The notes: generated by a model not told the origin, from the sequence alone. Shown: positions 9,332 through 63,943, numbered from the stretch's first letter. The stretch is 64,000 bases of DNA from Candidatus Omnitrophota bacterium (GCA_028865345.1 JAGWKL010000001.1:157489-221488); one strand, 5' to 3'. Numbers and translations: made by a program.

Positions 9332-9334
9332 CGT

Positions 9335-12111: not shown

Positions 12112-12122
12112 AAAGATACCCG

Positions 12123-13310: not shown

Positions 13311-13399
13311 GGGAAAATGATTATATCAAATCTTATTAATATTACAATTTATTTTAAGGACGGGGCCCCAGTCTGGGGACAGGCAGCGGGAAAATCCTA

Positions 13400-14542
13400 T
13401 TATTGCCAGAGCACGGAGTCAAAGCCAAGAGTGCCTGTGCATAAAATCCTGGCGATCCCTATGGAGGTAATGGCTAAAAACACTACAAAAGCTGCCTGAA
13501 GGACCGCTCCCAACCTTTTATTAAAACCTTTCAGACGCTCTATGGCCATCACTGCCAGCATCAACAGCACAGGGCAAAAGAACAACGAAGTCCGGGGGCA
13601 AACAAAGGGATATTTATGTATAGCCCCGAATATCAAATGCAGCCAAAATACGGCAAAAGCGGCCGGAACAACCGATTTAAATTCAAATCCATCCTTTTTA
13701 AACCTGCCCCAAAAAGCGGCCAGCATGTATACCAGACCCATTCCCATAAAAAGCCGGGACGGGCCCCTCATCCAATGGGGCCTTTCGGCAAACCAACGGG
13801 AGATCAAATTATTCAAATTTTTCCCTAAACTGCCGAAAAAGGCCCTCGGGGAATCAAAAGAAATAAAATAATCGTGCCAATAAACACTCAGATTATTTCT
13901 GGTAACGCTGACGTCAAAACAATAAAACACCAAAAGGGCCGATACGGCAACGCACGTATAAAGGACCAGCGGCCGCCATTGCCCTGTCCTCTTGCCGCAC
14001 AACCATAAATTCCATAAAAATAAAGGTATCCAGAACACGGATGGGTAGGAAACAAAACAAAGAAACGGCAGGACGTACCACCAGCGGCTTAAACCCCGGT
14101 ACAAACACCATAAACACAAGGCCGCAGCCAGGACATCCATGGAATATTGCTTTAATTCGGACGCATAATATACCAGCATGACCGATGCCGGCCAGCACAG
14201 GATATAAAGGCCAAGAGCGGCGCGGTCTTTGAATTCCCTGGAGGCAATGCCAAGCCACACCCCGAAAGCCGTCACCATGCAGGCAAAGGGCAGAAACCTC
14301 AAGGCCCAAAGTTGAAAATGAAAATATCCGGAAAACCGCTGGATCATCCAAAGATAAAAACGCGGAAAGGCCTGAAGATCAAGTAATGGTTTTGAGAATA
14401 AATCAACGGTGGAATAATTTTTAATGTTAAGAAAAATGCAATATTCATCGTTCCATAAAGGGCGCCGGTTGAAATAATGGAGGGTGATGAGAAAAAGATA
14501 CCAGCCGGCCAGGGACAAGCTGACATAGCGTAAAGTTTTCAT
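13400..14542 (-). CDS. polytopic membrane protein, possibly a GT-C-fold glycosyltransferase (ArnT/PMT-like)
   Basis: 380 aa with about 10 TM helices. An acidic motif RRPLWNDEYCIF in the first predicted periplasmic loop resembles the DE / DExRY motifs of GT-C enzymes. This is a weak call. Confidence 0.35.
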   Translation of the reverse strand: MKTLRYVSLSLAGWYLFLITLHYFNRRPLWNDEYCIFLNIKNYSTVDLFSKPLLDLQAFPRFYLWMIQRFSGYFHFQLWALRFLPFACMVTAFGVWLGIASREFKDRAALGLYILCWPASVMLVYYASELKQYSMDVLAAALCLWCLYRGLSRWWYVLPFLCFVSYPSVFWIPLFLWNLWLCGKRTGQWRPLVLYTCVAVSALLVFYCFDVSVTRNNLSVYWHDYFISFDSPRAFFGSLGKNLNNLISRWFAERPHWMRGPSRLFMGMGLVYMLAAFWGRFKKDGFEFKSVVPAAFAVFWLHLIFGAIHKYPFVCPRTSLFFCPVLLMLAVMAIERLKGFNKRLGAVLQAAFVVFLAITSIGIARILCTGTLGFDSVLWQ

Positions 14543-47954: not shown

Positions 47955-48629
47955 CTAGAAGCCCCTTTGGAACAGCAGCCGCAAATGCTGCACTTCATTG
48001 AGCGTATACTGCGGCTGGGCCAAGAGACTTTGATCAATAATTTTAGAGGAAGGCATGAACAATTGCAGCACGTACTGGCGTGAGGCGCCGATAAGATTCT
48101 GGATCTCTTTTAAGTCCTCTTCGGAACATAAGGGCCTGACCAGCGTTGTCCTGAACTGATGGCGCAGGCCGCTGTTGATGATCAAATCAATGCTGGATTT
48201 GATGCGGTCGAAGTCAATCTTGATACCGACGGCCTTTCCATAATTGGCCGGAGAAGTCTTTAAGTCCATGGCAATAAAATCCACCAGCTTGCGTTCAATG
48301 ACAGAGGCCAGAACATCAGGATTGCTGCCGTTGGTGTCCAGCTTGACCGCGTAGTGCATGGATTTTAATTGCCTAAGGAAATCCGCCAACCCCTGCTGGA
48401 TGGTAGGCTCCCCGCCGGTGACCACCACTCCTTCCAGGCGGCCTTTGCGTGATTCCAGGAACTCCAGGACCATCGATTCATCAAGCGGTTCCTCAAAGAG
48501 CTTAGGGCATGCCAGCTGGGAATTATAGCAGTAGCCGCAGCGGAAATTACAACCCTGCGTAAAAACAATGGCCGCCATTTTCCCCGGATAATCGATGAGA
48601 GAAAATTGCTGGAATCCCCCTATGCGCAT
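47955..48629 (-). CDS. nrdG: anaerobic ribonucleoside-triphosphate reductase activating protein (radical SAM)
   Basis: Radical-SAM cluster motif CNFRCGYCYN and the NrdG-family core. I take the start at MRIGGFQQF, which overlaps the nrdD stop by about 10 nt. Confidence 0.8.
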   Translation of the reverse strand: MRIGGFQQFSLIDYPGKMAAIVFTQGCNFRCGYCYNSQLACPKLFEEPLDESMVLEFLESRKGRLEGVVVTGGEPTIQQGLADFLRQLKSMHYAVKLDTNGSNPDVLASVIERKLVDFIAMDLKTSPANYGKAVGIKIDFDRIKSSIDLIINSGLRHQFRTTLVRPLCSEEDLKEIQNLIGASRQYVLQLFMPSSKIIDQSLLAQPQYTLNEVQHLRLLFQRGF

Positions 48630-50722
48630 AAATGGTAGGTCGCGCGCTTCTTGAACTCCTCCTTCTTGCCCTTGTTCCATTGCTTGACCGGCCGCAAATA
48701 CCCCACAACACGGGAATAGACCTCACATTCGCAACCGCACGTCCCGCACTCCGGATGTTCCCCGGCCAGATAGCCGCAGCTCGGGCAGACACTGAAGGTG
48801 GGCGTGATGGTAAAGTACGGCAAACGGTATTGCTGGCAAATACAACGCACCAGGCTCTTTAACGCCGTCGCATCAATGATGCGCTCTCCCACAAAACCAT
48901 GCAATACCGTGCCGCCGGTATAAAGCGTTTGCAGGGCATCCTGATGGTCCAATGCCTCGAAAATATCGTCGGTATGCTCCACCGGCAAATGGGTGGAGTT
49001 GGAATAAAACGGCTCATGCCCCTGTGTATAACGCTCTTCGTTGGCGCAGATGATATCAGGAAACATCCCCTTGTCCAATTTCGCCAGACTGTAGGAGGTC
49101 CCTTCGGCCGGTGTGGCCTCCAAGTTATAAATATTACCCGTCTCCTTCTGGTAATCCAATAATTTGTTTCTCATGAATTCCAGCACGCGCACGGCGAAAT
49201 CTTTGCCCTGGGGGCCGGAGATATTCTGGCCCAACAAATTCAAGCAGGCCTCATTCATCCCCAAAAGACCGATGGTCGAAAAGTGGTTTTTCCAATACTG
49301 GTCAAAACGTTTCTTGATATTGCGCAGATAGAACTTGATATACGGATATAAATTCTCCTCGGTAAACTGCTCCAGCACCTTGCGCTTGATCTCCAGGCTT
49401 TGCCTGGCCAGGTCCATTTTCTCTGCCAGCATCGCTAAAAATTCAGTTTCGTCCTTTGCCAAGTACCCGAGACGCGGCAGGTTGATGGTGACGACTCCTA
49501 TGGAGCCGGTCAACGGTGAGGCCCCGAACAGCCCCCCGCCCCGGCTGCGCAGCTCGCGGTTGTCCAGACGCAGGCGGCAGCACATGCTGCGCGCGTCCTC
49601 GGGGCTCATATCGGAATTGATAAAATTCGAAAAATACGGAATACCGTATTTGGCCGTCATCTCCCAGAGCAGGCCCAGGTTGGGGTTGTCCCAGTCAAAA
49701 TCCTTGGTCATATTATACGTCGGGATGGGAAAGGTGAACACGCGGCCTTTGGCATCCCCGGCAAGCATTGCCTCAAGAAAAGCCTTATTGAACATGTCGA
49801 GCTCTTTTTGGAATTCACCGTAGGTCTCTTTTTGTACCTGGCCGCCGATGATGACGCCCTGATGGACGAAATAGCTGGGAACGGTCAAATCCATGGTGAT
49901 ATTGGTAAACGGCGTCTGGAAACCGACGCGGGTGGGCACATTGATATTGAATACGAATTCCTGCAGGACCTGCTTGACGCCTTCATAAGAAAGCCCATCG
50001 TAACGGATGAAGGGGGCCAAGAGCGTGTCAAAATTCGAAAAGGCCTGGGCGCCGGCGGCTTCCCCTTGCAACGTATAGAAAAAATTGATGATCTGCCCCA
50101 GTGCCGTGCGCAAATGCTTGGCCGGTTTGCTTTCCATTTTCCCTGAAACGCCCTTGAAGCCCTGGATCAACAGATCCTGCAAATCCCAACCCACGCAATA
50201 AACACTGAGCAGCCCCAGATCATGGATATGAAAATCGCCGTTTTGGTGCGCTTCCTTGACAGGAACAGGATAGATTTTGTTCAACCAGTAAATTTTGCTG
50301 ACCTCGGATGAGATATAGTGATTTAACCCCTGAAGGGAGTAGGCCATATTGCTGTTCTCATTGACGCGCCAGTCGTTCTGCCGCAGGTATTGGTCCACGA
50401 GGTCGGTGTTGAATTTTGAGGCGATGGCGCGCATCTCGGCATGCTGCTGGCGGTAAAGGATATAGGCCTTGGTGGTTTTGCGGTAGGGGGAAGAAATCAG
50501 GACATCCTCGACAATGTCCTGGATATTTTCCACCGTCGGACTCTCGGGGAACATCTGCTGGGCGATGTTGACCACCCTGACCGCGAGCTTTTGGGCGACT
50601 TCCAGATCAAATTCTCCGGTGGCCTGTCCGGCTTTGGCGATCGCCCGGACGATCTTCTGAGGGTCAAAATTTTCTGATTTCCCATTGCGTTTGACAATCG
50701 TGGTAAACAAGCTGACAGCCAT
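48620..50722 (-). CDS. nrdD: anaerobic ribonucleoside-triphosphate reductase (class III), glycyl-radical enzyme
   Basis: 700 aa. The N-terminal ATP-cone is MAVSLFTTIVKRNGKSENFDPQKIVRAI. The C-terminal Zn-ribbon is CPSCGY...CGTCGCEC. The glycyl-radical motif is SRVVGYLRPV. Confidence 0.9.
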   Translation of the reverse strand: MAVSLFTTIVKRNGKSENFDPQKIVRAIAKAGQATGEFDLEVAQKLAVRVVNIAQQMFPESPTVENIQDIVEDVLISSPYRKTTKAYILYRQQHAEMRAIASKFNTDLVDQYLRQNDWRVNENSNMAYSLQGLNHYISSEVSKIYWLNKIYPVPVKEAHQNGDFHIHDLGLLSVYCVGWDLQDLLIQGFKGVSGKMESKPAKHLRTALGQIINFFYTLQGEAAGAQAFSNFDTLLAPFIRYDGLSYEGVKQVLQEFVFNINVPTRVGFQTPFTNITMDLTVPSYFVHQGVIIGGQVQKETYGEFQKELDMFNKAFLEAMLAGDAKGRVFTFPIPTYNMTKDFDWDNPNLGLLWEMTAKYGIPYFSNFINSDMSPEDARSMCCRLRLDNRELRSRGGGLFGASPLTGSIGVVTINLPRLGYLAKDETEFLAMLAEKMDLARQSLEIKRKVLEQFTEENLYPYIKFYLRNIKKRFDQYWKNHFSTIGLLGMNEACLNLLGQNISGPQGKDFAVRVLEFMRNKLLDYQKETGNIYNLEATPAEGTSYSLAKLDKGMFPDIICANEERYTQGHEPFYSNSTHLPVEHTDDIFEALDHQDALQTLYTGGTVLHGFVGERIIDATALKSLVRCICQQYRLPYFTITPTFSVCPSCGYLAGEHPECGTCGCECEVYSRVVGYLRPVKQWNKGKKEEFKKRATYHLCA

Positions 50723-51143: not shown

Positions 51144-53933
51144 TTATTTGTACCCGAAGATCATGGTAAAAATAATGCACACGACCAAAACGAGCCCAAG
51201 GCTCAGGGCCGTCCAGCCGAAGATCCGGATGGCCAGAATTTTCCCCGGCGACAAAGGCTCTGCCAAATTCTTTTCGAGTTCGCCGCGGGCGACCAAGGCT
51301 TCATATTCCTTGGGCCGTTCGCGCTTTAAATCCTCGATGGACATGCGTCCGGTAAAGATCACCGTGTCCATAGGAAATTTCTCCGGCCTGAAATGGGTGT
51401 TGAAGAAATGCACCGTAAAAATAAACCCGGCAGCCAGCAAAGCCTCATCGCTGTGGACGATGGTGGCCACATTGATGACCCATCCGGGCAATACATGCGT
51501 GAAGGCTTCGGGAAACCAAAGCATCAATCCCGAGGTACCGATGACCATGACCCCCCAAAGCACGGCAAAATAATCAAATTTTTCCCAATATGTCCACCGC
51601 CCGTATTGCGGATATGGCCCTTTGCCCATGTACCATTTCACTGTGACTAAGAATTCACGCCAGTCTTTTTTTGTAAAAAGAATGGTATCGGGTCCGAAAA
51701 GCATCTCTTTGAAACTTCTTTTCTCAAGTCGTTTTTGGAGAAAGACCTGCCTCAAATGCGCAAAGAAGATGCCCAAAAGGGTCACCGCGGCACAACGGTG
51801 CAGGAACCCTGAAACCGCATAGCCGCCCAAAAGCTTCGAGATGAACAGCGCCCACGGCGTGTACGAAAATTTCAGCGTCATACCGGTGATCGTCAAGGTC
51901 AGGAAGCTGCAGATCATGATGATATGGAGGACCCGGTAAAATACAGGGAAACGCACATATTGTTTTTCCGTCGAGACAATATGTTTTTGAGGATAAAGCC
52001 TTCTCATTTCCAGGGATTTGGGCAGCCACAAAAGCGTATGGAAAAGGCTGACGCTGAATGTCCCCACCAGTAAAGCGGTCATGGCCCAAAAAGTCCAGAA
52101 TATCCAAGGGTATTTCTTGGGGTCATGGTGGGTGGCGTGGGTCAAATAACCGGCAAAACGCCTGTTGGCGCCCGCGTGGCACTTTTGACATGTATGGACG
52201 ATGTTCCAGTAACTCAAGGTCGATCGGGGATCTGTCACAGGAAAGATCTCATGGGACCCGTGGCAATCCTGGCATTTAGCGGCTTTCGCATACCCGAGTT
52301 TAGAAATTTTTCCATGCACAGTCTGGAAATAGGTCGAGGCGATCGCCTGATGGCATTTGCCGCACGTATTCATAATATCGAATCTAAAGGCGTTCTCGTC
52401 CGTCCTTTTAATGGTGTGCGCGGTATGACAATCATTGCAGGCAGGCAGTCGGGCCGAATCCTTGTGCCGGCCTATGGCATGGACGCTTTTCATGTACTTT
52501 TCATAAACGCCCTGATGGCATTGGGAGCAGGTCCTGGCAATGTTCCTGCGGTTCACGGTGGACCGCGGATCAGCGGCGGGCAGTTGTTCGTGGGCGGTGT
52601 GACAGCTGACACAGGTGGCGGCCACGACCAGCCCGCTTTCCAAAAGCCCCTGGCCATGGATGCTTTCAATGTAATTCGTGGTGATATTATGTTCCGGGCC
52701 TTTGTAAAGTACCGCCGCCTTATGACCTTCCCTGTGGCAGCGGGCGCAAAGAGCAGGGATATTGGTCGGATAGGTGGGCGACCTGATGTCCTTGTGGGAC
52801 AAAATTCCGTGGGTGCCGTGGCATACCCTGCACGACGGGGCATTAGGATTTCCCTGGCTCCATAATTTCCCGTGCGTCCCTCGCCGGTACGCCGCCACTT
52901 GTTGGCTGTGGCAGATGGAACAATCCACTCTTTTAGTGATCGTCTCACAGGGCCGGGTGTGGGAGGCAGAGACCTGGGTATGGCACTGGGCGCAGGCGAC
53001 CTTGGCATGGACTGAACCGTTGAATTGCTGTTCGTCGATGAAAAGCGACCGGTGGTCTTTGGAAGAGACGATTGTTTTCTTGCCGTGGCAGGTCAGGCAA
53101 TCTTGGTTGGCTTCTCCCATTGGATAATAGACCCGGCGTATCTTGTGGGGCTGGTGGCAATCCACGCACACAGGGATGACCTGCGGGTTCTTTTCCCATA
53201 ACTTGCCGTTGATGATCTTGCGATGGACACGCTCAATCTGGCTGTGGCATTGCAGGCAGGTCTTGACGATGTTGGCACGGGCAATGGACGAACGCGGGTC
53301 GGTGAAAGGAAGAATATCATGGGCCCGATGACAGGAGGCGCAGGTAGCGGTGACGTTGAGCCCTTTTTTAAGAAGAGCCTCCCCGTGCATGCTGTCGGAG
53401 TAATTTTCCAATATATGCTTCTCGGGGATCTGCCTTTGTTGCGAAACCGGCTTGCCCTCGCTATGGCAGGAACCGCAGACAAAAGGAATGTGAAACGGCG
53501 CCACCGTCGAATTTGGGTCTTTTACGGGAAGAATATAGTGGTTGCCGTGGCAATTGAAGCATTCCGGGGCCAGTTTGTCCCCGCGTGCCCGTGCCCGGCC
53601 GTGAATGCTGTCGGAAAACAGCGCCTCCTGCCGTGTGTGGCAGCGCCCGCAATCCACCAGGGCCACTGCCGTCTTATGCGGGAAATCACTGCCGACTAAA
53701 TCCGTATGACAATCCGTACAAAGTTGTTTGCCGTGAACAGACGCCTGGAATTTATCCTGGTCAACGAACGGCGCCTGGGTCGCATCTCCATGGCAGGCCA
53801 GACAATCGTCATTGGTCGCAGCGCTTTTGACGGCCGCAGGAGGACTTGCGGGGGCGCTCTGGGCATGAACGGTCCATGGTACGGTCAGCAGTACCAGTAT
53901 AAGAATAAAAGATTTTGGAATTCGGACGCCCAT
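51144..53933 (-). CDS. fusion of a periplasmic 19-haem cytochrome c domain with a C-terminal polytopic dihaem cytochrome-b-type membrane domain (CbcL-like architecture)
   Basis: The start is taken at MGVRIPKSFILILVLLTVPWTVHA, the signal-peptide Met at 53933; the ORF-track N-terminus overlaps the upstream gene. There are 19 CxxCH motifs, from CLACH to CQKCH. About 6 C-terminal TM helices carry intramembrane His (FHTLL, LHII, FLHRC, FAHL, IVHSD, TVHFF), as in HydC/FdnI/PhsC-type cytochrome b. Confidence 0.8.
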   Translation of the reverse strand: MGVRIPKSFILILVLLTVPWTVHAQSAPASPPAAVKSAATNDDCLACHGDATQAPFVDQDKFQASVHGKQLCTDCHTDLVGSDFPHKTAVALVDCGRCHTRQEALFSDSIHGRARARGDKLAPECFNCHGNHYILPVKDPNSTVAPFHIPFVCGSCHSEGKPVSQQRQIPEKHILENYSDSMHGEALLKKGLNVTATCASCHRAHDILPFTDPRSSIARANIVKTCLQCHSQIERVHRKIINGKLWEKNPQVIPVCVDCHQPHKIRRVYYPMGEANQDCLTCHGKKTIVSSKDHRSLFIDEQQFNGSVHAKVACAQCHTQVSASHTRPCETITKRVDCSICHSQQVAAYRRGTHGKLWSQGNPNAPSCRVCHGTHGILSHKDIRSPTYPTNIPALCARCHREGHKAAVLYKGPEHNITTNYIESIHGQGLLESGLVVAATCVSCHTAHEQLPAADPRSTVNRRNIARTCSQCHQGVYEKYMKSVHAIGRHKDSARLPACNDCHTAHTIKRTDENAFRFDIMNTCGKCHQAIASTYFQTVHGKISKLGYAKAAKCQDCHGSHEIFPVTDPRSTLSYWNIVHTCQKCHAGANRRFAGYLTHATHHDPKKYPWIFWTFWAMTALLVGTFSVSLFHTLLWLPKSLEMRRLYPQKHIVSTEKQYVRFPVFYRVLHIIMICSFLTLTITGMTLKFSYTPWALFISKLLGGYAVSGFLHRCAAVTLLGIFFAHLRQVFLQKRLEKRSFKEMLFGPDTILFTKKDWREFLVTVKWYMGKGPYPQYGRWTYWEKFDYFAVLWGVMVIGTSGLMLWFPEAFTHVLPGWVINVATIVHSDEALLAAGFIFTVHFFNTHFRPEKFPMDTVIFTGRMSIEDLKRERPKEYEALVARGELEKNLAEPLSPGKILAIRIFGWTALSLGLVLVVCIIFTMIFGYK

Positions 53934-53935
53934 AC

Positions 53936-55759
53936 CTAATCTCTGCTGCGGCCATGAAGCCACGACCAATTGCCCGGATAAACATCGGGATCGAAAATGA
54001 CGAAATATCCGTGCCAGATGATAATGGTGACACAGGCCAGAATGGCCTCGTACAAATGGACCGTCCTGACCACATCATAAAACCATTTGGGAAACATCCT
54101 TAAAAACCAAACTTCACTGAACATCAATACACCGGTCGCCACCATCACCAGGGAACCCCACAGCAGGGCCCAGTACTCTAATTTCTGCACATAACTATAA
54201 ACACCGTCGGGCTTTGGCTTGTCTTTACACCGGCCGAAATAATATTGGAAGCCCTGAAAAAGCTGTGTAAAATCCTCTTTTCTGATGCTTAAAGCTTTTA
54301 ACTGCCAGAGGCCTTTTTTCGTGAAAAACAAATAATAGAGGTGATAGAGTGCCAGGGCACAAAATACAAGGCCTGTGCCGCGATGCCCCCATCTCAACCA
54401 GTCATTGTGCCCGAAAAACATGAAGGACCACCAGGTTTGCGGGTACTTCAGGGAAAACCCGGTGTAGGCCAAAATGATAAAGGTCGCCGTTAAAATAAAA
54501 TGCTGACATCGTTCATTGAAACCCATGCACTCCCTGCCCTGCTGCAGAGAATGGCGGTAATGCGCCGCAGCTTTCTTGGAAAAATCAAGAACGTTATGCA
54601 ATAAGAGAATGCCCGAGACAAAAAAGATCAGGAAAACATAAAAGCACCGCACCCAATCGTTGACAGGATTGCCTCCGTTCTTAAGCCCCCCATGGACCAA
54701 ACCTTGCGCCACCCGCGCCCCGATGCCCGGGTGGCATTGACCGCAGGTCTTCTCCAGGTTCCTGGGGTTGATCGTCGAACGCGGATCCGATGACGGAAGG
54801 ATCTCATGCGCCCCGTGGCAGGACGCGCAATTGGCCGCGGTCAGCGTCCCCTGCTGCATCGCAAGACCGTGATAGCTTTGCATATAGCTACCCAATACAT
54901 TGCCGGGAAGGCCGTAGGCGGCATTGATGCGTTGGGCTGCATGGCATTGACCGCAGGTCTGCGGGATGTTCGCCGAGGAGACCATCGACGATGCCCTTTG
55001 GACCGCTTCGATGTTGTGCTCTCCATGGCAATCGGTACAGACAGGGGTGTCCCTGCTGCCCGCGGCCAATGCCTGCCCGTGGATTCCGCGAGCATACTGC
55101 TTGTATTCTTCCTTATGGCACTTACCGCAAGTCTCGGGGATATTGACCCAGTATAAGCGGGACAATCTATTGGCGGGCTTATTAATGTCGTGCGCCCCAT
55201 GGCAATCGCTGCACACGGCGGCCTTCATGTCCGTCCCTTTTTGAAACTCAAGCCCGTGAACGCTCTTCAAATAGGTCTTGCCTTCCTTGGTCAAAAGAGC
55301 GCTGTGTAGTTTCTGATGGCATCCCGAGCACGTGAGAGGGATGTTCTTGCGGTTGACCGGTGAACGAGGGTCATCGGCCTCTAATATCGCGTGAGGGTCC
55401 CCGTGGCAGGCCGTGCAGGAAGTCTCCGACGAAAAGACTGCGGCCATGCCCCTGGCATGGTCGCTGCGGCTAACGCCCAAGGCTTCTTTCTCATGACAAA
55501 CGGCGCAATCGACTTTTCGGAGTTTGTCAGCGTGAGGAAGCCCCTTGATGTCCTTATGGCAATCGATGCAGTCTAACGTTTGATGGACAGAATTGTTAAA
55601 GGCCTTTGGGTCAATAGCCGGGGCATTGTCCGCATGGCAGCTAAGGCAATCCTGGTTGGTCAGCTTAACTGGCGCTTGGGGAGCTTGCTGGGCCGTGGCA
55701 CAAACGCTCACCAGAACCGATAAAAAAAAGGTCCCTGAAAGACCTATGGTGTTTTTCAT
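53936..55759 (-). CDS. paralogous fusion of an 11-haem cytochrome c with a cytochrome-b-type membrane domain
   Basis: Signal peptide MKNTIGLSGTFFLSVLVSVCATAQQ; the start is taken there, and the ORF-track start at 55843 overlaps the upstream gene. There are 11 CxxCH motifs, then a C-terminal 5-6 TM domain homologous in pattern to that of the 19-haem protein (WVRCFYVFLIFFVSG..., His in TMs). Confidence 0.8.
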   Translation of the reverse strand: MKNTIGLSGTFFLSVLVSVCATAQQAPQAPVKLTNQDCLSCHADNAPAIDPKAFNNSVHQTLDCIDCHKDIKGLPHADKLRKVDCAVCHEKEALGVSRSDHARGMAAVFSSETSCTACHGDPHAILEADDPRSPVNRKNIPLTCSGCHQKLHSALLTKEGKTYLKSVHGLEFQKGTDMKAAVCSDCHGAHDINKPANRLSRLYWVNIPETCGKCHKEEYKQYARGIHGQALAAGSRDTPVCTDCHGEHNIEAVQRASSMVSSANIPQTCGQCHAAQRINAAYGLPGNVLGSYMQSYHGLAMQQGTLTAANCASCHGAHEILPSSDPRSTINPRNLEKTCGQCHPGIGARVAQGLVHGGLKNGGNPVNDWVRCFYVFLIFFVSGILLLHNVLDFSKKAAAHYRHSLQQGRECMGFNERCQHFILTATFIILAYTGFSLKYPQTWWSFMFFGHNDWLRWGHRGTGLVFCALALYHLYYLFFTKKGLWQLKALSIRKEDFTQLFQGFQYYFGRCKDKPKPDGVYSYVQKLEYWALLWGSLVMVATGVLMFSEVWFLRMFPKWFYDVVRTVHLYEAILACVTIIIWHGYFVIFDPDVYPGNWSWLHGRSRD

Positions 55760-55815
55760 CAAACCGCTAACCGTCATATGCGCCCGTAAATAATCCCAGA
55801 CGTATGCCGCCTGTT

Positions 55816-57324
55816 TCATCCCCCCGTATGACAGTCCGAGCAATTGGTCGTCTTCCAGGAATCGTCATCATAAAACGGATGCTGGAATTCCAGGCCGTTG
55901 ATGCTCTTTTGCACGGCGGTGCCGCTGCCCTGTTCGACGATGATATGGCAAAGAGTGCATTTGCGCTCAATGACTTTTCCATCGGCGGACTTATGCTCAT
56001 TGTCGTGGCACCGGAAACACCCCCGTGAAATCATGTGCCCGATGTTGTCCGGATAATCGTCCCAACGCGATTTCATTTCCGGAAAGAAATTTTGTTCGTA
56101 CAGCAGGGTGATTTCTTCAACAGCCTGCTCAACGGCAGGGCGGTTCTTGGTGTAATAAGCAAAGTACTTTTGTTTGTAATAGTCCGTTAATTTCGAACGG
56201 ATCTGCTTTTCGGCCTGACTTGTAGAATTATATTTATCGCCGAGAACTTCGACCCCCTCCGACTTTATCATGGGAATTGATGGACTGATCTTCCCCTGGG
56301 CCAGGGCCCGGTTCATCAAGACATCAGGCGCTTCAAAGCGGTGGGCGGCGCGGTTATGGCAATCGATGCAATCCATTCTCCTGATCTTGTCCTGAGGGGG
56401 ATTGACTTTTTTGTAAGGAGAGTTCTTGGACGTATAGATCGTGACCTTCCCCGATTTGTCCACCGTCTTGACCCAGCTGATATGCTGGCGTTTGGCGTCG
56501 TCGGCGACGTAGAAGATCTCATTATTGAAATACATGTGCGCGTGAATGCCGGCCTCGCCGTTTTTCCCGTTCCCGACACGCATCAACAGGTTGATTCTCC
56601 AAGGCGGGGTTTGGCTGGGATCATCCGCGTAATAAACCTTGTTGAGCAAAATGGCGCTGAAAGGCTTACCCGGCCAATGGCACTGTTCACAGATCTCCTT
56701 GGCCGGTCTCAAGGTGTTCAGGGGAGCCGGGGTCGGACGCTGATATCTGCCGTCAAAAGTCTTAACGAGCATTTTGGTCCCCGCCACTTTATAACGCAGG
56801 TACCAGTTGGCACCGGAACCCACATGGCACTCAACACACCTGACCCGTTCGTGGGGAGAATGGTTGTGCGTGTCATATTCGGGCTTCATGATCTGATGGC
56901 AGGTGAGCCCGCAAAATTGGGTCGATTCCGTATAATTAAAAGCCCTATAGGAACCGATGGCGGTCATGACCAGCAGGGTGACCGTGCCGATCATGAAGAT
57001 AACAACAGCGTTTTGGTGGGTCGCTAAAGAAAGATCGATGACGATGGGCTTGGGCTTTCCTTCTTTCGAGCCGCGCAAAAGCCGCCCGCGTTTCAAGGAG
57101 GCCCCTATCGGGATCAGTATAAGCCCGACAATGAGAAATGGCGGCAAGAAGACATAGGTGAGCAGCCCTAAATAAATGCTGGACTTAGGGGAAGCAAAAT
57201 CGATCGCGAACAAAAAGAGCTCGCAAAGAAGCACGAACAAAGACAGCCCCACACCGATATAGGTAATGTTGTTGTAAAAGCTATCGGAGAACCGCTGTTT
57301 CTTCTTTTTGAGCTCATTGTCCAT
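55816..57324 (-). CDS. inner-membrane multihaem cytochrome c with 3 N-terminal TM helices and 7 haem motifs (ImcH / NapC-NirT-CymA-like role)
   Basis: 502 aa with three hydrophobic helices in the first 130 aa. There are six CxxCH motifs (CVECH, CEQCH, CIDCH, CFRCH, CTLCH, CSDCH) and one CX3CH (FCGLTCH). Confidence 0.7.
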   Translation of the reverse strand: MDNELKKKKQRFSDSFYNNITYIGVGLSLFVLLCELFLFAIDFASPKSSIYLGLLTYVFLPPFLIVGLILIPIGASLKRGRLLRGSKEGKPKPIVIDLSLATHQNAVVIFMIGTVTLLVMTAIGSYRAFNYTESTQFCGLTCHQIMKPEYDTHNHSPHERVRCVECHVGSGANWYLRYKVAGTKMLVKTFDGRYQRPTPAPLNTLRPAKEICEQCHWPGKPFSAILLNKVYYADDPSQTPPWRINLLMRVGNGKNGEAGIHAHMYFNNEIFYVADDAKRQHISWVKTVDKSGKVTIYTSKNSPYKKVNPPQDKIRRMDCIDCHNRAAHRFEAPDVLMNRALAQGKISPSIPMIKSEGVEVLGDKYNSTSQAEKQIRSKLTDYYKQKYFAYYTKNRPAVEQAVEEITLLYEQNFFPEMKSRWDDYPDNIGHMISRGCFRCHDNEHKSADGKVIERKCTLCHIIVEQGSGTAVQKSINGLEFQHPFYDDDSWKTTNCSDCHTGG

Positions 57325-57329
57325 TCGCC

Positions 57330-59495
57330 CTACCAGTTAAAGCCTAATTTCATCAAAAAGATATTGGCTGAATAATTCCCCGACCCCACCGTGGGATTGT
57401 CCTTATAAGCCGCGTATTCATACTGGGGGCCTATTTTCAACCACTTGTGCCAGGTCCAGTCAAGGCTGGTAGTATAATTGAACATCTTAAAGTCAGACCC
57501 ATAAGGCACGCCTATGCCGGAATCGACATAATTGTTTGAGATCGTATAGGACGCGGTATTGGTCCAAACCCAATTCTCCGTTGGACTATACGTGGTCGAA
57601 AAAAGGAAGCTGTTGTCCCCTGAATTAAAATCGGGGATATAGGAAGGCCCGCCCTCGGCCGATGTCCCTGCCGAAGATGCCGCGATCGTCCTGACATAAT
57701 TTTCCACGTGCGAATACGAGAGCATCAATAAAAGCGTATCGATGGGCTGCAGCGTGATATCGTAGGTGAATGCTGATGTCAGCATATGATTTTCAGAGAT
57801 GTTATAATTCCCGTCTGCAGGGAGAGGATCTGAAGAACCGCCGGCCGATGGATCCAACTGAGGATTATAGACCGTATCGGAGAATTGGTATTTCAATGAG
57901 TTTTGCAGCCAGTGAAACGGTTTCCAGGTCAGTGTCGAAGTTTCGTCCACCCCTTTTTCCCTTAAGGAACTCATCAGAACAAGCCCGCTGGCAGAAGGAT
58001 TTGAAATTGTATCATATCCGCTGTACTGATCATGGACCCTGGCCTGGGTCGAAAAAATAATAAACCGGTTGGGATAAGTCCTGGCTCCCACGGTCCATGA
58101 TTCTTTCTGAGTTCTATTGAGCCTCTCCAAGTTAGAAAAAGTATTACTCGTTGAGCCCCCGGGAAGAGCAGTATAGGACTCATCGACCCAGTTCCTGTCC
58201 TGCTGCCATTCACCGTCCATATACACGCTGGTATGGGGAATGCCATAAAACCGCAGCCCCACATGCTCCCCGGTTTGGTCTTCACGGTTCTTCATACTGG
58301 CGTCATCTTCCCCTGTAGTACCAGCTGCATAATAGGCGGAATCACCCTCACTACCCTTATGCTCATATTTGACGTCGGTAAGAAAATCCACATTTTTCGT
58401 CAAATTGGAATTCAGGTTTCCCACCAAGACATGGTCATCTTCCGAAGCACTTGAATAATTCCATCCGGAGGTGCCAGACGTTACAGGGGTATAAACAACG
58501 CCGTCTGTAGATGAGAATTCCGCCTGCTGCATCAGGTCCGTGTCATGGATATGGTTATAATGGTATCCGACCGCGGCGTAGGTGTTGTCGTTGAGCATCC
58601 ATTTTTCCGCCCTCACCCCTGCGCCGAAGAGCTTGGCATTCGGGGATTCATTATATGTATTAAGTTGATTGGGGGTTGAAGTGGTGTCATTAAGATACTG
58701 CATATACTGGACATCATTATTGTAATCAAATTCCGCTTTTTGATCTGCCTTGATGGTCACTCCCGCGATCTTCTTCTTTTCTTTCAGGGTGATGGTGTCC
58801 ACATAACTATTTAACGACTCCCATGCAGGGCCGATTTTCCTTTCGGCGCCGGATGCGGTCTGTCCGGCCGCATAGACCGGGGTCCATTCTAAAAGCGACT
58901 TATCGCCGTTCTTGGTATTGTGCTCATAGGCTATGTCCAAATAAGGATCGCTGATCGGCCCTAAGCCTGCTTCCAATTTAAAATAACTGATGTCCATCTG
59001 TAAAGCAGGACTGTTAGCCTGGTACCCTTGATATTGAGAGGAAATTGAACCATAATTCGTATAACTGGCGGGAGGAGGATTACCGGCGGTGTTAGTAACG
59101 ACCTGGTTCGGATAAAACCCGCCTGTCCCATCATACCATTTTCTAAAGGCGTTATAGTCTACCCGCAAAAAGCCCACGTCCCCGTCCTGCAGGACCAAAT
59201 GGCCGGTGCCCGTGTCGGTCCCCGGGAATGCACTGCCTTGCACTTCCAAGGATATATTCTTATTAATATCTTTAACAAATGAGATATTGCTTATTCCTCC
59301 ATTGTTGTCCGTATTGGCCTGCATCCAGTTAAGGGCTTCGAACTTGCCCACATTGCCCTTGACGCTGGCATATTGTACCGGTTCAAGAGTGATGCTAAAA
59401 GGCGTGGTATCCGCATCCTGGGCCAATGCCAGATATCCCACCTGCGTCATGTACGCTGCCACCATGATTGAGAGTAAAATACGAAAGATTTTCAT
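57330..59495 (-). CDS. large outer-membrane beta-barrel protein (MtrB/MtoB/PioB-like porin of a porin-cytochrome conduit)
   Basis: 721 aa with signal peptide MKIFRILLSIMVAAYMTQVGYLALAQ. It is rich in Gly/Thr/Asn/Tyr with alternating amphipathic strands. The C-terminal ...LMKLGFNW ends in an aromatic residue. It is flanked by multihaem cytochromes. Confidence 0.6.
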   Translation of the reverse strand: MKIFRILLSIMVAAYMTQVGYLALAQDADTTPFSITLEPVQYASVKGNVGKFEALNWMQANTDNNGGISNISFVKDINKNISLEVQGSAFPGTDTGTGHLVLQDGDVGFLRVDYNAFRKWYDGTGGFYPNQVVTNTAGNPPPASYTNYGSISSQYQGYQANSPALQMDISYFKLEAGLGPISDPYLDIAYEHNTKNGDKSLLEWTPVYAAGQTASGAERKIGPAWESLNSYVDTITLKEKKKIAGVTIKADQKAEFDYNNDVQYMQYLNDTTSTPNQLNTYNESPNAKLFGAGVRAEKWMLNDNTYAAVGYHYNHIHDTDLMQQAEFSSTDGVVYTPVTSGTSGWNYSSASEDDHVLVGNLNSNLTKNVDFLTDVKYEHKGSEGDSAYYAAGTTGEDDASMKNREDQTGEHVGLRFYGIPHTSVYMDGEWQQDRNWVDESYTALPGGSTSNTFSNLERLNRTQKESWTVGARTYPNRFIIFSTQARVHDQYSGYDTISNPSASGLVLMSSLREKGVDETSTLTWKPFHWLQNSLKYQFSDTVYNPQLDPSAGGSSDPLPADGNYNISENHMLTSAFTYDITLQPIDTLLLMLSYSHVENYVRTIAASSAGTSAEGGPSYIPDFNSGDNSFLFSTTYSPTENWVWTNTASYTISNNYVDSGIGVPYGSDFKMFNYTTSLDWTWHKWLKIGPQYEYAAYKDNPTVGSGNYSANIFLMKLGFNW

Positions 59496-59515: not shown

Positions 59516-60298
59516 TTAATAACGAAAATAATGATCAAAATTAGACCCATGAGGCGCAGAATGACAACCCGCGCTCCAGCATGTTCCATAAACAAAATCA
59601 TTATAAATATGCTGAGCACTGGTACCGTTCTGGCCATGGCCATAAGGGAAATTATTCATGGCATGGCAGCGTAAACACAGGTTATAATCCCGCGCGATCA
59701 GCATTTTGTCATTAACCGACCCGTGCACCTGGTGGCAGGACGTACAACCGTCCTTCATGGCATCATGCTCCCAGATATACGGCCCTCGTTTGTCGCTGTG
59801 GCATTTGAAACAGACATCGTTAACACCGTTCTCTGACGTAGCCGTCCAGGGACGGACATCTATCCCATGGGCGTCGTGGCAGTCGGTGCAGCTCATCTTA
59901 CCTTCCAGGACAGGATGATGGTAAGGCAGACGGAATTGCATCTTTTTATCGGTATGGCAGGTAAAACAGACCTCCGGATCATTTTTGGGGTTGATGATAT
60001 TGTTCGTCCCTCCCGAGGCATCCACGTGGATACTGCCCGGACCATGGCAGGTCTCGCAATCCTGGGCGCCGGTGGTTTCGTTCTTGATATGGAGACGCCC
60101 ATGCGTCGAAAGCTTGTATTCACGGCCTTCTTTTTCATGACATGTCACGCAGGTATCCATGCCCACATACGTGGCTTTCTTCAAATACAACATCTCGTTG
60201 ACCTTGTTCTGATCCGCCCGGGCAACTGAAATTCCCCCGGCCCAAAACAATCCCATTGCCAGCCCCAAGAGAACCATCCACGATTTTTGACCGATCAT
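59516..60298 (-). CDS. periplasmic 8-haem cytochrome c (MtrA/MtoA/PioA-like)
   Basis: 260 aa with signal peptide. There are seven CxxCH motifs (CVTCH, CETCH, CFTCH, CTDCH, CFKCH, CTSCH, CLRCH) plus one CX4CH (CWSAGCH). The haem density is about one per 30 aa. Confidence 0.8.
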   Translation of the reverse strand: MIGQKSWMVLLGLAMGLFWAGGISVARADQNKVNEMLYLKKATYVGMDTCVTCHEKEGREYKLSTHGRLHIKNETTGAQDCETCHGPGSIHVDASGGTNNIINPKNDPEVCFTCHTDKKMQFRLPYHHPVLEGKMSCTDCHDAHGIDVRPWTATSENGVNDVCFKCHSDKRGPYIWEHDAMKDGCTSCHQVHGSVNDKMLIARDYNLCLRCHAMNNFPYGHGQNGTSAQHIYNDFVYGTCWSAGCHSAPHGSNFDHYFRY

Positions 60299-60658: not shown

Positions 60659-61702
60659 TCACATCTGAGACATTTGATTTATCAAAGAAACCTTTTCCAG
60701 GGCCCCGAAGAATTCACCAATTTTCTGGGCGATCATTTCTTCGACCGTTCCCACCGCCGACAGGCGCTTTCGGGTGTTGCCTTCGACGATCCTGTCCAAA
60801 TCATCCACGGTCACAAGCGTGACATTTGTCATACCGCCCACCTCGGGAGCGACATTGCGGGGCATGGAAATGTCGATCAATACCAACGGCCGCGCTGTCC
60901 TTGTTTTCATGACCGTATCAACCAGGTCACGTTCGATCAAATGGTGAGTGCAGCTGGCCGAGCAAATGCACACATCCGCCTGGGACAAAACTTCCCTCAT
61001 TTCCCAAAAGCCAACGGCTGTACCGCCGCTTTCACGGGCCAGTTCCTGGGCATTTTCCATTGTCCTGTTCATGATATAAATGTCGGCGACACCCTTTTTA
61101 GCCAATTGCTCAACCGCCAGACGTCCCATTTTTCCCGAACCCACGATCAACACGGTCTTGCCTTGCAGCGTGCCCAGGACATTTTGCGCCATCACGACCG
61201 ACGCCCAGCTTACCGATGAGCCGCCGAAATCGATGGACGTCTCATGGCGCGCTTTCTTGCCGGTCTGCACAACAAGATTGGAAAGGATATTGAAAGTTTT
61301 GCCCATCATGCCGTGCGCGCGTGAAAATTCAAACGCTTCCTTGACCTGCCCCAGGATCTGTTTTTCCCCGATGATCAGGGAATCCAGGCCCGTGGTCACG
61401 CGCAACAAATGCTCCACGGCTTGACTGCCGGTGAAGGTATAGAAATGGCCCGTTAAATCTGCCTGCGGAGGGATTTTCTTGATCTTAAAAATTGCATCAA
61501 TGAGCGCTTGAGGCCGGCCCTCAATGCTGTTAGCGTAAATCTCCGTTCGATTACAGGTCGATAAAACAAACGCTTCCGCAATGCGGGGATCATTTTGAAG
61601 CTCGCTTAAAAGCAATTCGCGCTCGATGGGCTGCAGGTAAAATTTCTCTCTGACATCTATTGAGGAAGTTTTATGATTTATACCGACGGCCAGAATATTC
61701 AT
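60659..61702 (-). CDS. hemA: glutamyl-tRNA reductase
   Basis: 347 aa with the catalytic-Cys motif VLSTCNRTEIY, a Rossmann NADPH domain (VLIVGSGKMGRLA) and a C-terminal dimerisation helix. Its start overlaps the stop of the receiver gene (ATGA). Confidence 0.9.
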   Translation of the reverse strand: MNILAVGINHKTSSIDVREKFYLQPIERELLLSELQNDPRIAEAFVLSTCNRTEIYANSIEGRPQALIDAIFKIKKIPPQADLTGHFYTFTGSQAVEHLLRVTTGLDSLIIGEKQILGQVKEAFEFSRAHGMMGKTFNILSNLVVQTGKKARHETSIDFGGSSVSWASVVMAQNVLGTLQGKTVLIVGSGKMGRLAVEQLAKKGVADIYIMNRTMENAQELARESGGTAVGFWEMREVLSQADVCICSASCTHHLIERDLVDTVMKTRTARPLVLIDISMPRNVAPEVGGMTNVTLVTVDDLDRIVEGNTRKRLSAVGTVEEMIAQKIGEFFGALEKVSLINQMSQM

Positions 61703-62079
61703 AGGTTGCCTTTGGGCGACAAAAGACGGTTGATCGTCGGAACAAGGCGGCGATCCAGGTCGCTTTTGTCGATAAAATCCTCCACATCCTTATGCCTTCC
61801 TAAGTCCTTCATGTCCTGCTTGGCATACATGGTCAAAATAATGATGCCGCAGGAATCATCCTGGCGTTTGATAAGGGAGGCCAGCTCCAGGCCGCTGATG
61901 CCCCTCGTTAAATGGATATCGATAATCACAACCTTAGGACGCCGCCTCAGGGCGATATCAATGCCCTCCTGGCCTGTCACGGCTTCCAAAATGTCCGCTT
62001 TGACGCCTTTCATAAGGATGAATCTCTTCATCGCTTCCCGGAACTCTTTGTGATCTTCGACGATCAATATGTTCTCCAT
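61699..62079 (-). CDS. stand-alone CheY-like response-regulator receiver protein
   Basis: 126 aa. The REC fold begins MENILIVEDH, with the phospho-acceptor Asp in VVIIDIHL and the conserved T/K. Confidence 0.85.
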   Translation of the reverse strand: MENILIVEDHKEFREAMKRFILMKGVKADILEAVTGQEGIDIALRRRPKVVIIDIHLTRGISGLELASLIKRQDDSCGIIILTMYAKQDMKDLGRHKDVEDFIDKSDLDRRLVPTINRLLSPKGNL

Positions 62080-62183
62080 AAATTTCTCATCGTTAAGGCA
62101 CGCTTCGCACTAATTAGAAGATACAGGAAGAGGGAAGGAATGAAAATTCGGTGAACTACTTAAGGAGGTACGTAGTATCACTT

Positions 62184-62215
62184 AAAAAGAGAACCTGTCC
62201 CCAGAACCGGGGACA
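62184..62215 (-). terminator. candidate intrinsic terminator after the histidine kinase / LuxR-RR pair
   Basis: The minus-strand transcript would form the hairpin UGUCCCC-gguucu-GGGGACA followed by GGUUCUCUUUUUAAG. It lies 20 nt after the LuxR-RR stop. Confidence 0.45.
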
Positions 62216-62234
62216 AAAGTGCTGCGGATTCGGG

Positions 62235-62879
62235 CTAAATCAACCCTTTGGCAATAGCGTATTTGACAAGGCCGGCGGCAGTCTTAATGCCCAGCTTGTG
62301 GATCAGCCGGCTGCGGTGGGTCTCAACGGTGCGGATGCTGATTTTTAATGAGGAGGCGATGTTCTTATTGGCGGCCCCCTTGACGATCATGGCCAGGACC
62401 TGCTTCTCACGGTTGGTCAATATCTGCAGGGAAGGGACATCGCCTCCTTCAATGGAACGCACATACTGCTCGGTGATGTATTCGGAAATCGCCGGTGAAA
62501 CAAAATTCTTGCCCTTCATAACAAGTTTAATGGCCATCACCAGCTGATCAAAAGCGCCGTCTTTGAGAATGTAGCCGCTGGCGCCGTGGGCCATCGCATA
62601 TTTGAAATGGTCGATGTCTTTTTGCATGGTCAATATCAGGACCTTTAATTTGGGATACCTTTGGCGCAATTCTTTGAGCGTCTCCAGGCCGTCCATTTGA
62701 GGCATGGACAGGTCCAATACCACACAATCGGTTCTGGCGGTTTTCAGCTTTTCCAGAAGGACTTCGCCGTTACCCGCCTCAGCCACCACTTTAAAGTCCT
62801 GGCTTTTGTCCAATAAACCCCTTAAACCCGCACGCAACATGGCATGGTCATCGGCGAGGATCACCCGGATTGCGCTCAT
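62235..62879 (-). CDS. NarL/FixJ-family response regulator (REC + LuxR-type HTH)
   Basis: 214 aa. The REC domain is RVILADDHAMLRAGL...DCVVLDLSMP. The LuxR HTH is LTNREKQVLAMIVKGAANKNIASSLKISIRTVETHRSRLIHKLG. Confidence 0.9.
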   Translation of the reverse strand: MSAIRVILADDHAMLRAGLRGLLDKSQDFKVVAEAGNGEVLLEKLKTARTDCVVLDLSMPQMDGLETLKELRQRYPKLKVLILTMQKDIDHFKYAMAHGASGYILKDGAFDQLVMAIKLVMKGKNFVSPAISEYITEQYVRSIEGGDVPSLQILTNREKQVLAMIVKGAANKNIASSLKISIRTVETHRSRLIHKLGIKTAAGLVKYAIAKGLI

Positions 62880-63943
62880 ATCTTCGTTCCCTTCACTGGA
62901 ATGTTAATAAGGATATCCGTCCCTTTTTTCAATGTCGACTGCAACTCTATGCGACCGCCTAAAAGCATGACCCTTTCCTTCATAGTCACCAGGCCCAGGC
63001 CCGTGGACCGGGAAGTCGCCACAAACCCTTTGCCGTTGTCGGAAATGCGGATCTTCAACTGGTCTTTGGCCACACGGACATCGACTCTGACGAGGCTTGC
63101 GGCGGCATGCTTGATGATATTGCCCATGGCCTCCTGGATGATACGGTATATATTAATGGCTTCGGCGTTAAACTTCAAGCTATCGATCTTATTGTGACGG
63201 AACTCTATCTCCAGGGACTTGGAGCGGTTGATTTCGTTGAACATCAATCTCAAGGCGGTGGTGAGTCCAAGCGTATCCAGCGTTGATGGCCTCATGCGCA
63301 TGGCCAGGTTGCGGGACTTTTCAATGATGCTGCCCAAATAGGCTATGATCTTCTCATGCTCTTTGCGCTCCTGGGAATTTCTTTTGGGATCCGGCAACCA
63401 TGCCGACTGGATCAGGATCTTCAAGGTGGCCAGCGATTGCCCCAGATCGTCATGGATGTCCCGCGCGATGCGGTTGGCTTCGCTCTCCTGCGCCTGGATG
63501 ATGCGCTGGGGGATGGCCTTGATCTCCTCTTCCATCAATTTGCGCGGGGTTATTTCCGTGCGGATGGAAACGTATTGGAACGGCTTGCCTTTATTGTTAA
63601 GAAAGGGAACGATGGTCGTATCCACCCAATAAATCGAGCCGTCCTTGGCCTTGTTGCGGATCTCGCCTTGCCACACCTTGCCATGGGCGATCGTACGCCA
63701 CAAGTCCCGAAAAAATTCCTTAGAATGGTAACCGGAATTGATGATCCGGTGGTCCCGGCCTAAAAGCTCTTGGCGGGTATACTTGGAAATCTCGCAAAAT
63801 TTATCATTGGCGTAGACGATCTTGCCGGTCTGGTCGGTAATGGCCACGATCGATGACACATCCAGGGCAAACTTAATATCCGTCAGTTCCTTGAGGGTCT
63901 TCTCGAGGGCGTATCTTTGGTAAAACGAACCGGGTATTGGCAT
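62876..63943 (-). CDS. cytoplasmic PAS-domain sensor histidine kinase (HisKA_3 / NarX-DegS type)
   Basis: 355 aa. An N-terminal PAS domain (SIVAITDQTGKIVYANDKFCEISKYTRQELLGRDHRII) is followed by a HisKA_3 H-box IARDIHDDLGQSL and HATPase_c motifs (ISDNGKGF, GLGLVTMKER). Its stop overlaps the LuxR-RR start. Confidence 0.85.
   Translation of the reverse strand: MPIPGSFYQRYALEKTLKELTDIKFALDVSSIVAITDQTGKIVYANDKFCEISKYTRQELLGRDHRIINSGYHSKEFFRDLWRTIAHGKVWQGEIRNKAKDGSIYWVDTTIVPFLNNKGKPFQYVSIRTEITPRKLMEEEIKAIPQRIIQAQESEANRIARDIHDDLGQSLATLKILIQSAWLPDPKRNSQERKEHEKIIAYLGSIIEKSRNLAMRMRPSTLDTLGLTTALRLMFNEINRSKSLEIEFRHNKIDSLKFNAEAINIYRIIQEAMGNIIKHAAASLVRVDVRVAKDQLKIRISDNGKGFVATSRSTGLGLVTMKERVMLLGGRIELQSTLKKGTDILINIPVKGTKI

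Follow-up and report, generated by a model that had tools for sequence, protein, structure and literature searches.

We showed that a 64,000-nt stretch of DNA from an uncultured Candidatus Omnitrophica bacterium (the whole of which is referred to below as the window) carries two adjacent minus-strand genes, designated A (51144..53933) and B (53936..55777), whose products join a periplasmic multihaem cytochrome c domain to a membrane-embedded cytochrome b domain. These proteins are probably CbcL-type quinol:cytochrome oxidoreductases, which link the oxidation of menaquinol to an envelope-spanning conduit for extracellular electron transfer.

Structure of genes A and B

Gene A encodes a protein of 929 aa from an ATG start and gene B a protein of 613 aa (the stop codons are included in both sets of coordinates), and the stop of B is separated from the start of A by a gap of 2 nt. 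The product of A contains exactly 19 CxxCH motifs followed by a cytochrome b domain with six transmembrane (TM) helices, and the product of B exactly 11 motifs followed by a domain with five such helices. Sec-type signal peptides could be read from both sequences (...TVHA followed by QS in A, ...ATA followed by QQ in B). That of A corresponds to residues 1-24 (53862..53933, minus strand; MGVRIPKSFILILVLLTVPWTVHA) and has a basic n-region, a hydrophobic core and a V-H-A cleavage motif. The open reading frames (ORFs) and the motif counts agree with the initial annotation of this region, which had described two tandem fusions with signal peptides and with 19 and 11 haems. Its estimate of about six TM helices in each protein holds for A, but B has only five, the C-terminal helix being absent.

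The product of A is 100% identical to the NCBI protein KGJ09_01125, which originates from a Candidatus Omnitrophica metagenome-assembled genome, and that of B is 100% identical to P0121, annotated as a "cytochrome b/b6 domain-containing protein". The start of B is uncertain: it may be located at 55777 (the NCBI start, which gives 613 aa) or at 55759, a Met situated six codons inward, where the initial annotation ended. The AlphaFold2 models of A and B have a mean predicted local distance difference test score of 79 and 77, respectively, with low values for residues 1-35 of A.

The fusions are not assembly chimeras, because colinear full-length homologues are present in independent assemblies. 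The best 120 database relatives of A share at least 56% identity with it and originate from Omnitrophota, Elusimicrobia, Acidobacteria, Ignavibacteria/Bacteroidota, Latescibacteria and Coatesbacteria; as many as 113 of them have exactly 19 motifs, and 106 of the best 120 homologues of B carry 11. A separate observation concerns the protein P0023 (1566 aa, encoded by a 7-kb Logan contig). Its one ORF contains 30 CxxCH motifs and begins as a B-type protein, to which an A-type protein, complete with its signal sequence, is directly attached. This is either a real B-A fusion or the result of a lost stop codon.

The cytochrome b domain

The cytochrome b domain of A (51153..52109, minus strand) comprises TM0 (residues 609-646), an FdnI-like bundle of TM1-TM4 (664-847) and an extra helix, TM5 (896-927), while that of B (53996..54667, minus strand) consists of TM0 (371-409) and TM1-TM4 (420-594). 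The C-terminal helix of A contains the invariant residues A909, G913, I920, F926 and Y928. Gene A is matched by Pfam multihaem families and by PF01292 (Ni-hydrogenase/FdnI cytochrome b); the score with the latter model was 55.1 bits for B and 29.8 bits, slightly under the cut-off of 30.1, for A.

A C-terminal profile, built from 13 domains of both the A and the B families, was searched against the PDB sequences and found one of them, FdnI of the E. coli formate dehydrogenase-N (E 1e-6). In the profile alignment, the predicted haem-b ligands of A (His670, His712, His827 and His842) and of B (His426, His465, His574 and His589) coincide, respectively, with His18, His57, His155 and His169 of FdnI (numbered by counting from the alignment), the haem-b ligands of this protein as reported by Jormakka et al. 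2002. The four ligands anticipated by the initial annotation could thus all be aligned with FdnI, and they are invariant: no exception occurs among 113 A-type and 104 B-type sequences or among 348 b domains of all haem-count classes, and in 150 diverse cluster representatives the conservation is 99-100%. The structural models also point to FdnI, which is the closest structural match of the A model and the best Foldseek match of the B model (1kqf_C; probability 1.00, TM-score 0.62 relative to the target).

Within the domain, conservation is highest in the motif Y-x-E-K-x-x-Y-x-A-x-x-W-G, which is located just before TM3 and aligns to the FdnI loop N110-Q113; this loop lines the menaquinone/2-heptyl-4-hydroxyquinoline N-oxide (HQNO) site beside the cytoplasmic-side haem. 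Because of this alignment, the quinone site of A and B may be placed on the cytoplasmic side of the membrane. For CbcL, a cytoplasmic-side site has likewise been proposed in the literature.

Two more histidines were noticed within the membrane part of each protein: His632 (TM0, about 52036-52038) and His726 (TM2, about 51754-51756) in A, and His394 and His479 in B. These positions are 94-100% conserved among close relatives, and all four cytoplasmic-side histidines are found at a similar membrane depth in the AlphaFold2 models. A third b haem bound by His632 and His726 was considered and rejected. In the 150 diverse cluster representatives the conservation falls to 92% for His632 and to 83% for His726, with Tyr, Gln, Thr and other residues as substitutes, and the independent replacement of the two argues against a bis-His pair. 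These histidines seem more likely to act at the quinone site or to take part in proton transfer.

The names assigned automatically to homologues by the Joint Genome Institute include "thiosulfate reductase cytochrome b subunit" as well as "cytochrome b subunit of formate dehydrogenase", and partial matches to TIGR01583 and TIGR02125 were obtained, as would be the case if the b domain were the membrane subunit of a formate dehydrogenase, a hydrogenase or a thiosulfate reductase. However, the scores with TIGR01583, TIGR02125 and NF007558 are far under the curated cut-offs, and neither the operon nor the genes on either side of it include one for a molybdopterin, NiFe or iron-sulphur (FeS) catalytic subunit. 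The related suspicion that the ORFs are artefacts of assembly or gene calling is contradicted by the conservation of the multihaem fusion, with identical haem counts, in hundreds of independent assemblies. The cut-offs, the gene context and the conserved fusion refute both ideas for practical purposes, and they have virtually no chance of being correct.

In five species (four Bacteroidota/Ignavibacteria and one Acidobacteriota) the A-type gene was found to be split (L028, 7165-10158; L034, 7213-10140; L076, 7204-10132; L082, 7216-10097; L085, 7004-9885). The split point lies exactly between TM0 and TM1, with overlapping or closely spaced stop and start codons (TAATG, TGATG and similar), and the products are a 19-haem subunit, with TM0 as its C-terminal anchor, and a separate b subunit of approximately 283 aa (TM1-TM5). 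These genes, whose organization mirrors that of FdnH+FdnI and HyaA+HyaC, are products of natural gene fission. Since the fission leaves TM0 on the c subunit, this helix can be assigned to the electron-transfer subunit.

The haem-c domains

The motif spacing, together with a second alignment to B, distinguishes within A a haem module 1 (53154..53804, minus strand; haems 1-8, residues 44-260), which is absent from B. It is followed by the MtrA/DmsE-like module 2 (52425..53099, minus strand; haems 9-16, residues 279-503) and by the membrane-adjacent haems 17-19 (52176..52364, minus strand; residues 524-586), which are colinear with haems 9-11 of B. Residues 271-863 of A can be aligned colinearly to B over its full length (29% identity, E 1e-81), which bears out the paralogy of the two genes proposed earlier, and residues 10-400 give the second alignment, to residues 17-349 of B (31% identity, E 2e-45). 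On the basis of these two alignments, A is a B-like body (8 + 3 haems and the b domain) extended by an additional N-terminal MtrA-like 8-haem module. The 8-haem modules of both proteins match the DmsE-family model and MtrA. The confidence of the A model reaches its minimum at residues 233-274, between the two haem modules.

Beyond the histidines of the motifs, the c domains hold invariant histidines, exactly 19 in A and exactly 11 in B. Their number indicates that all c haems are bis-His coordinated and have no open coordination site. With an invariant distal His available for each haem, the domains would therefore act as wires and not as catalysts.

Distribution and previous descriptions of the family

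In a scan of one genome per species, the A-type b domain was identified in more than 585 genomes, and the best 80 A-type loci of that scan represent about 15 named phyla or candidate phyla. For further comparison we used 51 of these 80 loci, in which the gene is complete and flanked by no less than 4 kb on either side. The A-type protein has 19 haems in 44 of these loci and 21 haems in four, while counts of 18, 20 and 23 were each found in a single locus. A search for the b-domain family among 1.84 billion cluster representatives yielded 1087 clusters at E <= 1e-30, and the best 150 representatives contain between 0 and 22 haems, most often 11.

The initial annotation regarded the haem counts of A and B as unusual. 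This opinion had to be abandoned, because each of the two counts is the most frequent one in a very large clade (19 in the A-type, 11 in the B-type clade) and both were already listed in the survey of Zhong & Shi 2018 (PMC6295460). The survey covered 138 CbcL/MtrH/MtoC homologues from 15 phyla (three of the proteins from Omnitrophica), with lengths of 416-1034 aa and 3-23 motifs. Among the entries of its supplementary table are 19-haem proteins of 906-932 aa, two of them being OGW82754.1 and a protein of the cultured Caldithrix abyssi, as well as 11-haem proteins of 649-706 aa, one of which is from Omnitrophica. OGW82754.1 (locus A3C47_05160) is identical with our database match P0039 and shares 64% identity with A. 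In addition, the CbcL label is routinely given to such proteins by metagenome pipelines. The 19- and 11-haem types are thus two large, ancient paralogous clades that have already been catalogued, and A and B are ordinary members of them. What has been added here is the description of A as B plus an 8-haem module, the invariant distal histidines, the five-gene operon, the recurrent pair and the TM0/TM1 split.

The operon and its surroundings

Genes A and B are the last of five minus-strand ORFs arranged in series, with gaps of 20, 5, 38 and 2 nt, in the order: 8-haem MtrA-like cytochrome, 721-aa protein, ImcH homologue, B and A. A promoter and terminator scan gave no signal above the shuffled background that would mark the ends of this operon.

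The gene directly upstream of B (55816..57324, minus strand) encodes a protein of 502 aa with three N-terminal TM helices (hydrophobic segments at approximately residues 20-42, 50-75 and 104-125), one CX3CH motif (CGLTCH at residue 138), six CX2CH motifs and a NapC/NirT-type region. Residues 106-216 match PF03264 and TIGR03153 (NrfH), and NrfH itself (2j7a_C) was matched with an E value of 3e-4. The positions of the motifs are nearly equal to those in the 505-aa Omnitrophica ImcH homologues of Table S3 in PMC6295460. The protein displays the pattern of the ImcH family and is a canonical ImcH homologue.

The 721-aa protein (57330..59495, minus strand) has a signal peptide, contains neither Cys nor a TM helix, and ends with ...GFNW. 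It gave no match in Pfam, NCBIfam or the PDB. All of its 40 database relatives are described as "hypothetical", and every relative with an organism name belongs to Omnitrophica; one distant (26%-identical) relative matches PF13505 OMP_b-brl. A role in the outer membrane is suggested by the position of the gene and by three features of its product, namely the signal peptide, the lack of Cys and the aromatic residue at the C-terminus. The protein is a putative Omnitrophota-only outer-membrane partner (porin) of the MtrA-like cytochrome and may represent an undescribed family. Genes of the 721-aa type are also located beside an 8-haem gene in two other loci (L004 and L088).

The first gene of the operon (59516..60298, minus strand) encodes an MtrA/DmsE-like periplasmic cytochrome of 260 aa, whose similarity to MtrA (6r2q_A) is highly significant (E 2.5e-34). 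It has seven CxxCH motifs and one CX4CH motif, i.e. eight haems instead of 10, and scores under the cut-offs of TIGR03508 (163.6 bits; cut-off 192.2) and NF041028 (179.7 bits; cut-off 325). The 8-haem cytochromes of the porin-cytochrome (Pcc) type are of comparable size. In the results of the sequence search, chain A of PDB 6r2q bears the misleading name "Cystathionine beta-synthase", although the entry is the "Structure of the Mtr complex" and the chain is the decahaem MtrA.

Upstream of the operon, the region 60659-63943 (minus strand) contains hemA (glutamyl-tRNA reductase; 60659..61702, minus strand; PF05201 and PF01488), a single-domain response regulator, a LuxR-type response regulator and a PAS/HisKA_3 histidine kinase. 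The hemA gene also neighbours cytochrome genes in L004, L005 and L088, and response regulators recur near those of L004, which suggests that haem supply and regulation are co-located with the operon. Directly downstream of A (47955-50722, minus strand), the anaerobic ribonucleotide reductase NrdD and its radical-SAM activase are encoded, consistent with an anaerobic lifestyle. Elsewhere in the window (5685-14542, minus strand) there is a glycogen/alpha-glucan cluster with a GH13 branching-enzyme-like protein, a GH57 branching enzyme and a GT4/GT5 glycogen-synthase-like protein; a 556-aa ORF lying inside it (7661-9331) has no Pfam match.

Recurrence of the arrangement in other genomes

At 24 of the 51 A loci, all from other species, a B-type gene was found as a neighbour. 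It encodes 11 haems in 12 cases, 13 in 10 cases, and nine and 17 once each; the median gap between the members of a pair is about 40 nt, and 13 of these 24 B-type genes are located upstream of A in the same orientation. An ImcH-like gene is present in 18 of the 51 loci and accompanies a B-type gene in 12, while an MtrA-like gene was found within 9 kb in five. The genes that recur near A are of the MtrA/MtrB type or the ImcH type or encode other large multihaem cytochromes. Since the pairing recurs across the 51 loci, A and B are ancient paralogues that often travel as a pair, and no recent local duplication.

A corresponding set of genes was identified in another member of Omnitrophota (L088), where hemA, ccsBA, an 8-haem gene, a 684-aa gene, an ImcH-like gene and B occur without A. 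In a closer relative (L004) an ImcH-like gene and A are divergent, with a pair of 8-haem and 689-aa genes and hemA 5 kb off. The other loci include those of Ignavibacteriales (L002: B-type, A, ImcH-like, further cytochromes), Coatesbacteria (L006: MtrA-like, MtrB_PioB, B-type, a cytochrome-FeS-NrfD module, A) and Pontiellaceae (L005: ImcH-like, then B). In Elusimicrobia (L003) and in the closest relative of A (L087; 81% identity) A stands alone, and it is therefore independent of this operon.

The close linkage of the two genes might alternatively mean that A and B, possibly together with ImcH, assemble into a single heteromeric complex of the inner membrane, whose subunits are made in a fixed proportion and do not serve as potential-tuned alternatives. 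The 2-nt gap and the frequency and orientation of the B-type neighbours would fit such a complex, as would the 30-haem read-through protein P0023, in which the passage from the cytoplasmic C-terminus of B to the A signal sequence is topologically feasible; moreover, the invariant residues of the extra C-terminal helix of A suggest a specific helix contact. However, a B-type neighbour is missing from roughly half of the A loci, A alone (L003, L087) and B without A (L005, L088) both occur, and P0023, known from a single 7-kb contig, may have lost a stop codon. Heteromer formation is, moreover, not known for FdnI-type subunits. A heteromeric complex is therefore distinctly unlikely. The tight coupling of the A and B genes, with a gap of 2 nt here and of 0-40 nt in most other phyla, is, in itself, just as compatible with the potential tuning suggested in the initial annotation as with joint production in a shared complex. 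In Geobacter, and there only, CbcL is known as a menaquinol oxidase that is needed for acceptors below about -0.1 V and is off at higher potential.

Proposed role of A and B

We propose that in both proteins a four-helix FdnI/HydC-like bundle, with two b haems stacked across the membrane and TM0 in front, would be in electron exchange with the quinone pool at a site close to the b haem of the cytoplasmic side. The electrons would leave menaquinol, cross the two b haems and enter the fused bis-His c chain (11 haems in B, 19 in A), the wire of A being much longer than that of B through the added N-terminal module. This chain would then pass them to the MtrA-like cytochrome and the putative outer-membrane protein, and ImcH, B and A might be three alternative or cooperating quinol oxidoreductases which feed one conduit. 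The domain layout, the numbers of haems and histidines, the fold, the paralogy, the operon and its conservation are shown by the data, from which we infer the quinone substrate, the cytoplasmic-side quinone site, the outward flow and the contact with the outer-membrane module. The context provided by the operon, hemA, the two-component system and the anaerobic ribonucleotide reductase makes conduit-linked quinol oxidation the most likely function.

It should be borne in mind that several observations weigh against this proposal. A and B are tied to CbcL itself through the published survey, in which P0039 is listed as OGW82754.1, and through the shared architecture, and literature searches revealed no experimental work on 19-haem members. 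The window has four multihaem ORFs only, and no outer-surface multihaem cytochrome is encoded there. The 721-aa protein has no detectable similarity to MtrB/PioB (hhalign probability of 0.3% with an MtrB_PioB protein) and no PF11854 match, and in a crude beta-strand hydrophobic-moment test it was no different from shuffled sequences. L087 and L003 carry A without any conduit genes. Finally, the family is also present, as MtoC, in Fe(II) oxidisers (PMC6295460), so that electrons may flow in either direction.

In the reverse direction, A and/or B might be quinone reductases, which transfer electrons of extracellular or periplasmic origin (from Fe(II), a partner cell or reduced humics) along the haem wire and over the two b haems to a cytoplasmic-side quinone and in this way, like formate dehydrogenase-N, build proton-motive force as one half of a redox loop. 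The closest relative of the b domain in sequence and fold, FdnI, runs toward quinone; MtoC and MtrH are present in Fe(II) oxidisers, and the authors of the survey could not tell oxidases from reductases by any feature of the sequence (PMC6295460); and a RuBisCO large-subunit gene is situated only a few genes away from A in L006. On the other hand, the ImcH homologue belongs to the same operon, and ImcH has so far been tied only to reducers (PMC6295460). The window ORFs scanned with Pfam include no marker of carbon fixation or of the oxidation of Fe(II), such as Cyc2, and CbcL, the only characterised member, is a quinol oxidase. Reverse flow is a serious alternative, but a rather unlikely one.

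The many A loci that lack porin-cytochrome genes within 9 kb, and the lack of an outer-surface cytochrome in the window, would also be expected if A and B were quinol dehydrogenases donating electrons to soluble periplasmic reductases, in the manner of NrfH, NapC and CymA. Such a role in periplasmic metabolism is quite improbable, since no gene of a periplasmic reductase lies in or beside the operon, a wire of 19 haems far exceeds the length needed to reach a soluble partner, and the neighbours that recur near A are of the kinds listed above.

Within the preferred reading, i.e. oxidation of menaquinol coupled to an extracellular conduit, a more extreme arrangement can be envisaged. If its two MtrA-like 8-haem modules and the three further haems were roughly colinear, A might form a trans-periplasmic cable of about 150 Å, which reaches the MtrA-like cytochrome held by the putative Omnitrophota-specific outer-membrane protein, so that electrons would traverse the entire envelope without soluble carriers, with the co-produced B and ImcH docked in one supercomplex as further points of entry for quinol electrons. 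We consider this arrangement improbable.

Significance

The inner-membrane quinol oxidoreductases are, to our knowledge, the least understood step of extracellular electron transfer, and only CbcL, ImcH and CbcBA of Geobacter and CymA of Shewanella have been studied. Our analysis indicates that the forms dominant in nature are not of the 9-haem Geobacter type; they are the 19-haem and 11/13-haem types, which travel together, often with ImcH, in about 15 mostly uncultured phyla. This pair is therefore a sensible target for biochemistry. Omnitrophota are mostly viewed as fermentative or host-dependent, and in these bacteria the pair may mark respiration with extracellular acceptors or donors. 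The A and B genes of the window overturn no current ideas. Most worthy of attention are the recurrent module of 19-haem, 11/13-haem and ImcH proteins, the possible periplasm-spanning wire and the Omnitrophota-only 721-aa partner.

Comparison with known systems

The closest characterised counterpart of A and B is CbcL (GSU0274) of Geobacter sulfurreducens, which likewise combines a signal peptide, a periplasmic multihaem c domain and a C-terminal HydC/FdnI-like dihaem cytochrome b in a single polypeptide; the parallel with the Geobacter protein drawn in the initial annotation is thus supported. Like A and B, CbcL has no FeS, flavin or molybdopterin partner and co-occurs with ImcH. However, it contains nine haems, in comparison with 19 in A and 11 in B, which places both proteins outside CbcL sensu stricto, and B has five TM helices instead of the six of the CbcL architecture. 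A further difference concerns the gene context: A and B share one operon with ImcH and an MtrA-like gene, whereas no mtrAB or mtoAB genes were found beside imcH in the survey (PMC6295460). These comparisons support the placement of A and B in the CbcL/MtrH/MtoC family, in clades that appear to be older than, and separate from, CbcL sensu stricto.

The membrane domain resembles those of FdnI (PDB 1KQF/1KQG) and HyaC (4GD3), and both the haem-b histidines and the pre-TM3 quinone-site loop of FdnI align to A and B, although the sequence identity to FdnI is only 17-20%. The partner of FdnI and HyaC is an FeS/catalytic subunit, whereas that of the b domain in A and B is the fused multihaem cytochrome. 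His632 and His726 of A have no counterpart in FdnI, and A possesses an additional C-terminal helix.

The 8-haem modules of A and B are similar to MtrA/DmsE (6R2Q, chain A), but they are tethered to the inner membrane and not inserted in a porin. The first part of the operon, an MtrA-like cytochrome gene followed by that of a large secreted Cys-free protein, resembles the gene order of porin-cytochrome (Pcc/Mtr) systems, although an Mtr-type outer-surface cytochrome (of the MtrC/OmcB type) is not encoded in the window. To conclude, the gene upstream of B encodes the three N-terminal TM helices of ImcH (GSU3259), together with its set of haem motifs (a single CX3CH and six CX2CH) and its NapC/NirT-like region, and in this bacterium it forms part of the same operon as two CbcL-type genes and an MtrA-like gene.

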